The notes below the pieces were generated by a model, which had not been told where the DNA came from, searched no databases, and saw nothing but the letters and a program-made list of their open reading frames with translations. From NCBI GenBank assembly GCA_030018135.1, contig JASEGJ010000001.1:78298-142297 (forward strand): a stretch of DNA of 64,000 nucleotides, in the 5' to 3' direction. This stretch comes from Candidatus Hodarchaeaceae archaeon (GTDB taxonomy: Archaea > Hadarchaeota > Hadarchaeia > Hadarchaeales > Hadarchaeaceae). The translations under genes and the position numbers were made by a program. The number at the start of each line of letters is the position of its first letter. Within the stretch, counting starts at the first letter, position 1. Shown in pieces: positions 9,051 through 39,740 of the stretch.

Positions 9051-13166
<4,116 letters not shown>

Positions 13167-17840: not shown

Positions 17841-17967
17841 TGGGCTGGCAGCGTCCTAGGGCTCCCGCACCCTCTCGGAGTGCAGTACTGCCTAGATCGC
17901 TGGCGGGCTTATCTTCGGCGTTCGGAATGAGAGCCGGAGTTTCCCCGTCGCTATGGCCGCCAACCCA
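17841..17967 (-). rRNA. rrf: 5S rRNA (stand-alone)
   Basis: GGCGGCCATAGCG...CTCATTCCGAAC...AAGCC...AGTACTG; complementary ends TGGGTTGGC/GCCAGCCCA. Confidence 0.95.
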
Positions 17968-19560: not shown

Positions 19561-19776
19561 TCATTTCGTCAGGTAGTAGCCCGCTGCCTTCTGCCGCGCG
19601 ACCCTCTTTGCAAAGCCCTTCGCCACGAGCTCCATCAAGGCGTTGTTAGTCATGCCCTTCGGCAGGCCGCTTGCGCGCATGACATCGTCCGCCGTCTTGA
19701 GCGCGTCCGGGCTGGTCGAGCCGAGCTTCTTCAACGCATCGTACACCTTCTTGCCAGCAGGCGTCAGGTCCGCCAT
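19561..19776 (-). CDS. Small basic winged-helix DNA-binding protein
   Basis: 71 aa; helix-turn-helix (TADDVMRASGLPKGMTNNALMELVAKG) plus beta wing; GGTGA RBS. Confidence 0.7.
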   Translation of the reverse strand: MADLTPAGKKVYDALKKLGSTSPDALKTADDVMRASGLPKGMTNNALMELVAKGFAKRVARQKAAGYYLTK

Positions 19777-19806
19777 TCTTTTCACCCAATTTTCGCTCCT
19801 TTTTTG

Positions 19807-20676
19807 TCAGCGCTTGGGTTTAAAACCCTTACCTACTCGAATCTCCAAGCTCATATCCATGGCTGGCGCCCTAAACGTCATGTAGCTGGAGGATAATATG
19901 TCCACGCCTGTCGCTGCATACTTTGCCACGTTCGCTAAATCAAGCTCGCCGGAGGCCTCGAGCAGCACGCGCTCGCGCAACCCTCGCTCGATCAACAGCC
20001 GCACCGCGCGCTTTATCTCGGCTGGTGTCATGTTGTCGAACATTAAGATGTCTGCTCCTGCCTCCGCTGCCTTGGGTGCATCCCCTGGCTTTCTCACCTC
20101 GATTTCAACCTTCTTCGAAAAGCTAGCACTGCGCGCCCGGCGGATGGCCTCGGCAACTCCGCCGGCGAGCTTGACATGGTTGTCCTTGATCAACACACAG
20201 TCGTCCAACCTGAATCTGTGGGTATCGCCGCCGCCGAGCCTCACCGCACGTTTGTCGAAGTAGCTGAGCAACGGCATGACCTTGCGGGTCGCGGCGAGTA
20301 TGATGTCCGGCTTGACCCGGCGAGCCTTTTCGAGCATTTCGCTGGTCGAGGTCGCCACCCCGCTCATTCGCATCAGTAAGTTCAACGCCGTTCGCTCGGC
20401 AACCAAGATGGATCGGGCTGGGCCCTCCAACTTCATCACGACATCACCGGGTTTGATTGGTTTTCCATCGGATTCCATGGCCTTTATGAGCACGCCGACC
20501 TCCTCGAAAGCTAGGGCCGCCTCAACCACGCCTGCGAGTATCCCATGTTGCTTCGCAACAATTTCAGCGGTGACCACCGCTTCAGGCGGCACGACGGTTT
20601 CGGTGGTTATGTCCCCGAAGCCTATATCCTCGGCCAACATCTTCCTAATTTTCATCTTCGCGAGTACATTAGTCAC
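19807..20676 (-). CDS. nadC: Quinolinate phosphoribosyltransferase
   Basis: EDIGFGDITT, TRK, HRFRLDD-VLIKDNH and EASG motifs; GTG start overlaps the nadA end. Confidence 0.95.
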   Translation of the reverse strand: MTNVLAKMKIRKMLAEDIGFGDITTETVVPPEAVVTAEIVAKQHGILAGVVEAALAFEEVGVLIKAMESDGKPIKPGDVVMKLEGPARSILVAERTALNLLMRMSGVATSTSEMLEKARRVKPDIILAATRKVMPLLSYFDKRAVRLGGGDTHRFRLDDCVLIKDNHVKLAGGVAEAIRRARSASFSKKVEIEVRKPGDAPKAAEAGADILMFDNMTPAEIKRAVRLLIERGLRERVLLEASGELDLANVAKYAATGVDILSSSYMTFRAPAMDMSLEIRVGKGFKPKR

Positions 20677-27291: not shown

Positions 27292-29579
27292 ATGAACCCC
27301 ATAGACAAAATTGCTAAACTTTGCGAAAGGAGGCCCCATCTCGTCATCGCTACCGTGGCAATTGTCACTTTGCTCCTCCTTCCGGGAATCCCAAAAATTA
27401 CCACCGAAACTAAAATGGAAACGTTCATACCCAAAGACTATCCATCGATAATGGCCCTTTCCGATGTGGAGAAAACATTTGGCGGGATGCGATACGAATC
27501 CATCTTGGTTGAGACAAAAAATGGCAAGGTAACAGATGCCGGTGCCATAAAATCGCTACTTGGCCTGCAACGAAAAATCCTTGTAGAACCCGCTTTGAAA
27601 GGGTATGCTGTCGAAGTCGAAAGCTATCTAAATTATCTTTTCCCATATATCATGGAAGATAACCAGCTACTGCCCGATGATGAACTTGAGCTGGCCGTGC
27701 AATCCTTTCTTTCCGGGCCGAGCGGCGCAAGTGTGGTCGGTCGATGGATAACCCCAGATCAAAAAATCTGCTTAATGAATGTAAACGTGGGGGCACACCT
27801 AAAATCGCGCGAAGCTGTGGAGAAAACTCAGTATTTTGAGAACTTGGTCAAAAGCTACGCGGCTGAGCATGGGATTTTTGATGCATCTATTACGGGCGGG
27901 TACTCGACCTCCAGAGATATGCAAAAAATTATCGAAGAGGACAACCGAGTCTTGTTGCCCGCTGCTGTGGCAATGATCATCGCAATTTTGGCGTTAGCAT
28001 TTCGTCGCGTTACCGATGTCGTTTTACCGTTTGTAGTCATTGCCCTAGCGGCGATATGAGTCCTCGGTATGATGGGCCATTTAGGCATCGTATTCACGAC
28101 CGTAGCCGTCGCGGTCCTCCCCCTCTTAATGGGGATAAGCATTGCCTACACTATACACATCATCAGCCGCTACAACGAGGAGAGGTCGAATGGTAAAAAT
28201 GCGGGCGAGGCCGCCGTATCGAGCATAAAGAACATGGGCACTGCCGTATTCCTAACGGCTGCGACGACCGCCATAGGCTTTGCCTCCTGGCTTATCTCGG
28301 ACCTGCCGCCGCTCCGCGATTTCGGCCTGCTCTGCATGTTGGGTATAATGTTCAGCTTTGCCCTCACCGTAACGCTACTGCCGGCGTTTTTGGTCATTCG
28401 AGACGGGAAAAAAGGGACCAAGAAAACCAAGGGGACGCAAAGGCTGGGCAGGTCGGCGCTGGACAGGGGATTAGTGAGGATCGCGACAATGACCAAACTT
28501 CACCCCAAGGGGGTTGTCGCAGTAGCTGGCGCGCTCACGGCAGTTGCGCTGGTCCTGACAACTCAAACTACTACTGCCATCTCATTTGAGGAACTCCTGC
28601 CAAGCGGGGTCGAATCAATCAGGACCAGCGATGAAATCAGGCAAAATTTCGGCGGTCAGGATCTCATCATGGTTCTGGTCAGGGGCGACGCGACCGATCC
28701 CAAAGTCCTCGAGACGATGGTATGGCTGGAACAGCATGTTCGCTTGGATAACAGAAATGTTAAAGGCGAGAGGGTTTACATAACGCGCGCGTACAGCGTT
28801 GCCGACATGGTGTTGATGGCCAGCGCAGGCGCCATACCGCGGACCTCGCAGGAGGTGGCAGCGATCCTTGAAAACCTCAGGCACCAAACACCCCACGTCG
28901 ACAGGCTCGTGACCTCCGATAATAACAAAACCATCGCGCTGTTCCACTGCGACGCCCGAAGCGATGCGGAGCTTAAGCTCACCGCCGACATCGTCAGAGA
29001 TTGGATCGGCCAGTTGCCTGATAACAGAGCCGAATTCGTGGCCACCGGGACGCCAGTCGTGGCCGCGGATCTGCTCTCGAAAATACCGCAGGATGCCCTT
29101 AACACCACTATGATGGCGCTCGCCCTATGCGCGGTGGTGCTGTGCATCGTGTTTAAGAGCATTGGAATGGGCTTAATTGCCATGGTGCCGATGGGTTTGG
29201 CACTGACGTGGCAGTTCGGCACATTTTACCTGCTCGATGTCCCCCTTAACGTGATCACGGTGCTGATCTCCGCTCTCCTCGTAGGCATCGGCATAGACTT
29301 CTCAATCCATACTACCCACCGCTATCTGGAGGGGGTGAGAGATCGCCAGCTTAAACCGGAGGGGGCTGTGCACGCTACCGTGCTCCACGTTGGCAGGGCG
29401 CTCCTAGCAGCTGCTGCGACCACCTGCGGTGCCTTCGGTTTGCTTGCGCTCTCGAGGGTGCCAATAATGAGACCTTCGGCAGCATGACAGCGCTCGCGAT
29501 ACTCTACTGCATGCTCGCGGCGCTGCTGGTTTTGCCCTCGCTACTTGTCGCCTATGCGGGACGGAGGATGGTTAACTAA
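27292..29579 (+). pseudogene. MMPL/RND-family transporter, disrupted
   Basis: In-frame TGA at 28057-28059 (ALAAI*VLGMM); frameshift near 29472 after which TFGSMTALAILYC...LVLPSLL continues; GIGIDFSIH motif. Confidence 0.82.
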
Positions 29580-30031: not shown

Positions 30032-30154
30032 TGGTGGGGTCGCTGGGATTCGAACCCAGGTCCCTGGCTTTTTTGCCCGACCTTGTCCCATTTGGCAGAC
30101 CATTGAGAACTTGATCTTAAGCCAGAAGGATAGGCCAAGCTACCCCACGACCCC
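30032..30154 (-). tRNA. tRNA-Pro(TGG) with two introns: 33/34 (30091-30118) and 37/38 (30070-30086)
   Basis: Pro-type body GGGGTCGTGGGGTAGCTTGG; 4-nt middle exon TGGG; BHB at both introns; encoded CCA. Confidence 0.9.
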
Positions 30155-31510: not shown

Positions 31511-31618
31511 TGGAGCCCCGGGTGGGCTTTGAACCCACGACCTACTGATCGCTTGCCGCCTGGTTACAAGTTTCGACAGCTCACCTTCAGTCGCTCTACC
31601 AGGCTGAGCTACCGGGGC
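31511..31618 (-). tRNA. tRNA-Thr(TGT) with two introns: 30/31 (31572-31587) and 37/38 (31550-31564)
   Basis: Spliced arm ACTGA-CT-TGT-AA-TCAGT; helices CGAC/GTCG and CTTG/CAAG with 3-nt bulges; U73 + CCA. Confidence 0.92.
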
Positions 31619-33682: not shown

Positions 33683-33787
33683 AAGCGTGGGTTGGCGATC
33701 ACCGCTTAGATCCGATCCCAGTGTGCTTCGATTTGCCCTAGCTCAGAAAATGGATATGCGTGCCATCAAAAGCTCATGAGTCCAATG

Positions 33788-33906
33788 TGCCGGGGGCGGG
33801 ACTCGAACCCGCGATCTCAGGATTTCTCACATCATGGTTGATCAGCACTCACAGCCAGTGGTTTGGGCTATGAGTCCTGCGCTTTAACCAGCTAAGCTAC
33901 CCCGGC
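33788..33906 (-). tRNA. Elongator tRNA-Met(CAT) with 45-nt intron at 37/38 (33824-33868)
   Basis: GCCGGGG acceptor; CAGGA-CT-CAT-A|...|A-TCCTG; helix CTCA/TGAG; bulges TA|G and AA|A. Confidence 0.92.
33829..33856 (-). ncRNA. Putative intron-encoded box C'/D' (K-loop) methylation guide targeting its own C34
   Basis: GGCTGTGAGT-G-CTGA-TCAACC-ATGATGT; guide pairs with ACTCATAGCC; fifth nt upstream of the D box pairs with C34. Confidence 0.65.
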
Positions 33907-39643: not shown

Positions 39644-39740
39644 GCGGCCGTGGTCCAGCCTGGTTAGGGCGTTAAGCGCCGCCAAAGGACCCAGGCTCCC
39701 CAAGCCTGTGGCGCGGGTTCGAATCCCGCCGGCCGCACCA
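39644..39740 (+). tRNA. tRNA-Gly(CCC) with 20-nt D-loop intron at 21/22 (39667-39686)
   Basis: GCGGCCG acceptor; helix TGGT/GCCA, bulges TA|G and AA|G, inner GGCG/CGCC; encoded CCA; unusual C33. Confidence 0.9.

Follow-up and report, generated by a model that had tools for sequence, protein, structure and literature searches.

An intron-encoded box C/D guide RNA was reportedly described for pre-tRNA-Trp by Clouet d'Orval in 2001 and by Singh in 2004, and a separate RNA of Haloferax, sR-tMet, is said (Joardar 2011) to direct the 2'-O-methylation of wobble base C34 (Cm34) of elongator tRNA-Met, for which it needs the intron-containing precursor. Engineered half-mer box C/D RNAs, with one kink-turn (K-turn) and one guide, have been used in reconstitution and crystallography. 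Here we analyse a stretch of 64,000 nucleotides (nt) of Candidatus Hodarchaeaceae archaeon (Hadarchaeota; contig JASEGJ010000001.1, positions 78,298 to 142,297), hereafter the window, in which a tRNA-Met gene carries an intron that an earlier note, made from the sequence alone, had read as a single-motif guide aimed at C34 of its own precursor. As a predicted function, this reading is supported by the sequence and comparative evidence presented below.

A guide in the intron is established for euryarchaeal pre-tRNA-Trp, as in Haloferax and Pyrococcus (PMC7994747, PMC4090602, PMC4033218), and a review of 2014 still regarded the Trp intron as unique among introns in encoding a guide for its own modification (PMC4090602). 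Many Euryarchaeota retain introns in two tRNAs, elongator tRNA-Met and tRNA-Trp (PMC7668247). Pyrococcus and the haloarchaea have trans guides for Cm34 of tRNA-Met (PMC7994747, PMC4033218), and in humans SNORD97/SCARNA97 guides Cm34 of the elongator tRNA-Met (PMC6601510). In Nanoarchaeum equitans, the 66-nt intron of elongator tRNA-Met is a stable RNA that contains, besides a hairpin of six G-C pairs, a box D and a variant of box C (PMC3491384); Randau (2012) described it as 'potentially guiding RNA methylation' and named no target, and that paper mentions neither the anticodon, nor the wobble base, nor C34 (PMC3491384).

Anatomy of the tRNA-Met intron

The gene lies on the minus strand (33788-33906), where the Rfam tRNA model gave the anticodon CAT and 47 inserted bases within the anticodon loop. 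By sequence reading, the acceptor strand is GCCGGGG and the anticodon stem CAGGA/UCCUG, with loop CUCAUA and anticodon CAU; the G1-C72 pair and an anticodon stem without three G-C pairs indicate that the tRNA is probably the elongator. ARAGORN overlooked the gene in default mode and mis-called it as tRNA-Ser when introns were allowed. Its parts, in window positions, are as follows.

33788..33906, minus: elongator tRNA-Met(CAT) gene with intron (Rfam RF00005, 63.4 bits, E 2e-11)
33869..33906, minus: 5' exon, positions 1-37 (sequence reading; the junction matches the intron-less tRNA-Met of a sister family)
33824..33868, minus: intron, 45 nt, canonical position 37/38 (read by eye; the spliced product equals the intron-less relatives)
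33788..33823, minus: 3' exon, positions 38-73 (sequence reading and Rfam)
33866..33875, minus: target strand ACUCAUA/GCC (ACTCATAGCC), A31-A37 plus intron bases 1-3, ten pairs with the guide
33872, minus: target nucleotide C34, inside the target strand
33871..33874, minus: CUCA (32-35), used by guide and splicing helix alike (fold analysis)
33857..33865, minus: variable hairpin loop from target to guide, 9 nt, differing in length and sequence among relatives
33847..33856, minus: guide GGCTGTGAGT (as RNA GGCUGUGAGU); UGAGU invariant, the three 5' bases covarying with intron bases 1-3
33846, minus: one-base spacer G (N+1); one base in 30/30 BLAST-retrieved loci
33842..33845, minus: box D' CUGA, invariant in 46/46 sequences
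33836..33841, minus: loop UCAACC of the kink-loop (K-loop); 6-9 nt and variable in relatives, a true hairpin in a DPANN-like order
33829..33835, minus: box C'-like AUGAUGU; AUGAU invariant, sixth base G in 45/46
33826..33829, minus: UGAG, 3' strand of the bulge-helix-bulge central helix, pairing with C32-A35; UGAG/UGGG in 44/46
33824..33825, minus: terminal intron bases AA (sequence reading)
33823..33825, minus: 3' splice-site bulge AA/A; AAA in 42/46, AUA in 3, ACA in 1

Re-reading the intron segment by segment returned a layout identical to that of the earlier note. CTGA and ATGATGT are present at 33829-33845 with the 6-nt connector of K-loop type that had been claimed, and the minimum free energy (MFE) structure from RNAfold reproduces the proposed pairing of the 10-nt guide across the 5' splice junction. 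This helix has ten pairs, one of them G-U, and the fifth base upstream of CTGA, a G, faces C34, which is the N+5 register put forward in the note. The guide/ACUCAUAGCC hairpin is the MFE fold both of the whole precursor and of the anticodon arm (z -4.7 and -3.5), and 0 of 200 shuffles folded as stably as the real sequences. The last U of AUGAUGU is at the same time the first base of the UGAG used in splicing, and a cut at 36/37 instead of 37/38 would yield an identical spliced product.

Next to the gene, the 3' trailer (window 33760-33787, minus strand) repeats GGACUCAU of the anticodon arm inside the palindrome CTCATGAG. The trailer copy GGACTCATGAGC of the anticodon-loop sequence was set aside, since it occurred in 1 of 51 distinct flanks and is thus not conserved.

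Conservation in Hadarchaeota and in a second phylum

Queried by BLAST with the 119-nt gene, 40 relatives yielded 30 loci from the family and the order, 27 of them full length including the intron, at 74-87% identity, and all 30 kept TGAGT separated by a single base from CTGA, with ATGAT following after a short loop. By pattern search over the Hadarchaeota, the arrangement was found in 52 of 66 genomes, in 22 of the 26 high-quality ones and in 18 of 20 genera, with no match for the reversed control; the 14 genomes without it include three of one family and the sole genome of an outlying family. The strict pattern, run on one genome per species for 185,579 species, recovered 57 stretches, almost all of them from Hadarchaeota/Hadesarchaea. 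Those not of the Hadarchaeota type were two DPANN-like loci (L080, L100) and five that are not tRNA (L061, L078, L092, L095, L097). Lineages whose base 31 differs, or whose boxes are variant, would escape both this pattern and a looser one.

The conservation of boxes and guide in relatives, proposed in the note as a check of its reading, was examined on 46 distinct sequences of Hadarchaeota, each covering the anticodon arm and the intron, which were aligned (A1). In A1, CTCATA, TGAGT, CTGA, ATGAT and the one-base spacer are invariant, and the loops vary in length and sequence (3-14 nt in the hairpin loop and 6-9 nt between the boxes). The internal D'-loop-C' motif consists of CUGA, 6-9 nt and AUGAUG, the last box base being U or G and not A, and the antisense element makes ten pairs that end beside D', with C34 at N+5 and a spacing constant in 30/30 loci. 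Standard pairs fill 99.1% of the cells of the guide-target helix. The seven pairs with exon bases have little room to vary, and the three made with intron bases 1-3 show changes in both partners: AU 21, GC 17, GU 7 and CG 1 at pair 12/29; CG 43, UA 2 and AU 1 at pair 13/28; CG 34, UA 4, GC 2, AU 1 and GU 1 at pair 14/27. The covariation score was matched by 0 of 500 shuffles, and registers slid along the guide were only 33-44% paired. Since the 5' bases of the guide covary with intron bases 1-3, the partner under selection is the exon-intron junction of the precursor itself. The introns of Hadarchaeota accommodate a single motif and a single guide in 37-50 nt.

Within the same order, the elongator tRNA-Met genes of one family are devoid of intron, and the predicted junction agrees with them:

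G031:C3:41107-41181: intron-less elongator tRNA-Met
G034:C4:38427-38501: intron-less elongator tRNA-Met

The tRNA-Met of genome G020 (L029/L114) appears to be interrupted twice, by the guide intron and by another one within the 5' strand of its anticodon stem.

The two DPANN-like loci, L080 and L100, belong to small genomes of one and the same phylum, of which the looser pattern matched 2 of 401 genomes. We sampled 81 genomes of their order (that of G066) with a pattern from which the C' box had been dropped, and obtained matches in 17, of which 16 were elongator tRNA-Met genes; the matches in G414 are not such genes, nor are two of the three matches found in G231. These introns carry the guide (U)UAUGAGU, one base, CUGA, a connector and then GAUGA or UAUGA. 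The connector is a true hairpin (for example GGC...GCC, GCCCUC...GAGGGC or GCCG...CGGC), and a K-turn with a proper closing stem is formed in 13 of the 16 loci, the remaining ones having a 4-nt K-loop (L147, L150) or a long insertion between the boxes (L148). The hairpin sequences differ from locus to locus and the CUGA and UGA core is fixed, which is the pattern predicted for a protein-bound K-turn. On this basis, the short-loop form of Hadarchaeota would be the K-loop version of the same device. Five further DPANN-like genomes of 0.5 Mb had AUGA in place of CUGA (one), short introns lacking the guide (three) or no match (one).

Competing folds and box C/D machinery

In the fold expected for splicing, a bulge-helix-bulge, C32-A35 pair with the four bases that precede the last two bases of the intron, giving a central helix of 4 bp with bulges of 3 nt, and the predicted junction fits the intron-less tRNA-Met genes of the sister family. 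Of the 46 aligned sequences, 44 preserve the central helix in full (UGAG or UGGG), the other two presenting UAGG with one mismatch, and the 3' bulge reads A-N-A. An inner helix h' next to the 5' bulge is not evident in the intron of the window, and some relatives show one in constrained folds. Hadesarchaea possess an alpha4 endonuclease with an extra loop that has been tied to a broad substrate range (PMC5829648), so that the intron of the window may be accepted without an obvious inner helix.

CUCA is needed by the guide as well as by the splicing helix, so that the two folds are mutually exclusive; the note had claimed this exclusion, and constrained folds support it. In nine representatives the fold constrained for splicing was 4-12 kcal/mol less stable than the free fold at 37 C. 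For the window precursor in its cloverleaf, the guide form and the splicing form had -46.8 and -39.0 kcal/mol at 37 C, -26.1 and -20.0 at 60 C, and -13.0 and -9.1 at 75 C, that is, gaps of 7.8, 6.1 and 3.9 kcal/mol in favour of the guide form, all these energies being protein-free nearest-neighbour estimates.

A third pairing joins the five bases 3' of CUGA to the last G of AUGAUG and the next four bases (A1 columns 42-47 with 58-62), as in UUCAC/GUGAG, UCCAC/GUGGG or CUAC/GUAG. It is incompatible both with the K-loop and with the splicing helix. All five pairs are present in 21 of 46 sequences, 92% of the cells are paired overall, and one position shows CG 17, UA 13 and UG 7; the window's own intron lacks the full pairing, with three of the five pairs. 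The DPANN-like introns (L139-L157) have an analogous hairpin that engulfs the box-C-like element. As a guess, this pairing might be a switch that dismantles the K-turn before splicing.

The three proteins of a C/D particle are encoded in the genome: the genes for fibrillarin (306 bits) and for Nop5 (235 bits) are neighbours on contig C5, and L7Ae is on C21 (TIGR03677, 140.4 bits against a cut-off of 134.6). A candidate for a canonical box C/D small RNA (sRNA) and other genes relevant here are:

G000:C33:16202-16259, minus: candidate canonical box C/D sRNA, best Rfam snoPyro_CD match (27.2 bits)
G000:C40:1321-1441: second CAT tRNA, with non-canonical introns
G000:C10 about 19626-19815, plus: candidate tRNA-Trp, about 110 nt inserted, with two CUGA and no RUGAUGA
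window 9069-9344, minus: ribosomal protein L30e, the L7Ae-family gene of the window (125.5 bits)
window 17843-17964, minus: 5S rRNA (94.7 bits)

The C33 candidate consists of a terminal GC stem, AUGACGA, an 11-nt guide, a CUGA-UUCAA-GUGAUGA K-loop, a 12-nt guide and CCGA, its box C (AUGACGA) and box D (CCGA) opposing C-C where U-U is usual. Its D guide is complementary at 12 positions, with one G-U, to the anticodon arm of tRNA-Leu(CAA), the target being a gene fragment at a contig gap on C24, and puts C34 at N+5. The trans guide and the tRNA-Met intron thus share one layout, UGAGU-N-box, and, since the former is aimed at C34 of tRNA-Leu, the organism appears to make Cm34 by means of C/D particles.

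No separate trans guide for C34 of tRNA-Met, for which the note had suggested looking, was found in the 93%-complete assembly: the intron was the only match of RTGAGTNCTGA, and none of the 26 sites from a looser scan of the same genome had a box C in its vicinity. In the intron-less and outlying families, 12 sites were inspected and none was convincing. Matches of the ten-base guide in coding DNA are uninformative as to other targets, and no 16S rRNA gene in which to look for rRNA targets was found in the assembly. A Trp-type intron guide is not evident in the tRNA-Trp candidate on C10. An sRNA candidate at window 28619-28670 (minus) was set aside as chance because it lies antisense within an open reading frame of 472 amino acids. 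The genome is rich in tRNAs with non-canonical or multiple introns, and three further intron-bearing tRNA genes lie near that of tRNA-Met (window 30035-30154, minus; 31514-31618, minus; 39644-39737, plus); a weak tmRNA match on one of these three was a false lead.

Interpretation and comparison with known systems

We believe that the tRNA-Met intron is probably a working guide for Cm34. At the sequence and comparative level, this is supported by its anatomy, conservation and covariation, by the protein genes and by the exclusivity of the folds; from these we infer L7Ae binding, methylation of C34, action in cis or in trans and the order of events. The intron would be half of an archaeal box C/D guide, with one antisense element, a box D', a short loop and a box C'. 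L7Ae would bind the D'/C' K-loop and recruit Nop5 and fibrillarin, and the antisense element would pair with A31-A37 and intron bases 1-3, either in its own precursor molecule or in another one, setting C34 opposite the fifth base upstream of D' for 2'-O-methylation by fibrillarin. As the target spans the exon-intron junction, we propose that the unspliced precursor is the sole substrate, and, as the guide and the splicing helix share CUCA, that the guide fold must open before the endonuclease cuts; once Cm34 is formed, the RNA would refold and then be spliced. The actor could be one self-guiding precursor, two molecules acting mutually or the excised intron. A Nop5 dimer could bridge two single-motif RNAs.

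Several observations weigh against a working guide. The intron has no second RUGAUGA/CUGA pair that could form a terminal C/D motif, inspection by eye revealed none in the flanks of 51 distinct loci, and a CUGA in the 3' exon of the window is not conserved in relatives. Some archaeal C/D ribonucleoproteins (RNPs) need two motifs for efficient methylation. The last base of box C' is U or G, where the consensus has A, and the third pairing sequesters part of this box in many relatives. One family of Hadarchaeota has an intron-less tRNA-Met and no guide recognisable by a simple pattern, so the device must be dispensable there. Moreover, a strict double-motif expression found 0 canonical sRNAs in the organism's own genome and the best snoPyro_CD match stays below the gathering score (27.2 versus 45 bits), so that its C/D repertoire looks small or divergent; RTGATGA...CTGA within 45-75 nt gave 42 matches versus 11-26 in shuffles, almost none of them convincing as an sRNA.

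Alternatively, the K-loop could be a structural element bound by L7Ae that serves folding, stability or the timing of splicing, its hairpin masking the anticodon loop, with no methylation involved. A single K-turn suffices for L7Ae and perhaps not for a working methylase, the guide hairpin, as the MFE fold, rivals the fold for splicing, the further alternative helix suggests a conformational switch, and in N. equitans the intron is found as a stable RNA (PMC3491384), all of which would suit such an element. It would leave without account, however, the exact one-base spacer and the placing of C34 at N+5 in 30/30 loci and in a second phylum, as well as the identity of layout with the genome's guide for tRNA-Leu C34, and we regard it as unlikely. 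We find it still less likely that the excised, probably circular intron is a guide acting in trans on rRNA or on another CAU tRNA, with the self-match being secondary. Reviews report that action in trans was demonstrated for the tRNA-Trp intron guide (PMC7994747, PMC4090602), circularisation is known for archaeal introns (PMC7714728) and a second CAT tRNA is present on C40, but the 5' part of the guide covaries with its own intron bases 1-3, pointing to selection on the exon-intron junction and not on a conserved rRNA site, and a mature tRNA would provide only about seven pairs.

A chance resemblance of the boxes, preserved by close kinship, was given hardly any credit and was already disfavoured. 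The bare box pair CTGA-N3-9-RTGATG does occur no more rarely than chance would have it, with 5 matches in the window against 1.56 expected and 30 genome-wide against 19-28 in shuffles, which is no significant excess. On the other side, the loops that flank the boxes diverge freely and the boxes are fixed, the guide shows compensatory changes, and the same design recurs with a different connector in another phylum. The composite pattern of anticodon loop, guide, box, loop and box matched the window once, was absent from all of 100 shuffles, and matched only five non-tRNA stretches in the genomes of 185,579 species; among the 17 long tRNA genes of the genome, only that of tRNA-Met has both CTGA and TGATG. 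The arrangement in the intron does not look accidental, the comparative evidence being the strongest in this respect.

If the intron is indeed a Cm34 guide aimed at its own precursor, the tRNA-Met intron has a reason to persist, nature offers a test of whether one K-turn suffices for a working C/D particle, and a simple system is at hand in which competing RNA folds order modification and splicing. The K-loop form, the hairpin form of the other phylum, the intron-less family and the trans guides elsewhere would make a comparative series. More tentatively, half-mer guides in tRNA-Met introns might be an old and widespread archaeal device, a checkpoint in cis in which methylation is followed by the third-pairing switch and then by splicing, with free-standing guides as escaped descendants; among the latter would be those for tRNA-Met in Thermococcales and haloarchaea, perhaps with the SNORD97 family of eukaryotes as well. 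We consider this wider scheme possible, although doubtful.

The earlier note stated that it knew of no described case. In so far as it concerns a tRNA-Met intron guide aimed at C34 this stands, as no description of one was found in a search that had the older key papers and supplements outside it, and within the same limit neither the C34 register nor the fold competition was found stated for tRNA-Met introns; the C/D-like intron RNA of N. equitans is, on the other hand, a partial precedent. As far as the description of the latter allows comparison, both are elongator tRNA-Met introns with one box C and one box D, and the GC hairpin of N. equitans resembles the between-box hairpin of the DPANN-like loci, whereas the Hadarchaeota have a K-loop and a set register, none being proposed for N. 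equitans. Like the tRNA-Trp guide, the one described here would sit in an intron at 37/38, address its own C34 by the N+5 rule and have a guide fold that alternates with the bulge-helix-bulge; the tRNA-Trp intron, of about 100 nt, has complete boxes C, D', C' and D and two guides (C34, U39), a set that the tRNA-Met intron lacks, having one motif and one guide. It would share its target base and enzyme system with sR-tMet and the Pyrococcus sRNA, which are separate two-motif genes, whereas here the guide lies within the substrate. SNORD97/SCARNA97 acts on the same nucleotide as a box C/D RNP and is eukaryotic, trans-acting and hosted in mRNA introns. Intron-borne C/D guides being already known, what appears to be new is a putative self-aimed guide of one motif, conserved phylum-wide and matched by a sister form in another phylum; half-mer RNAs are laboratory constructs, and the tRNA-Met intron would be a natural one.
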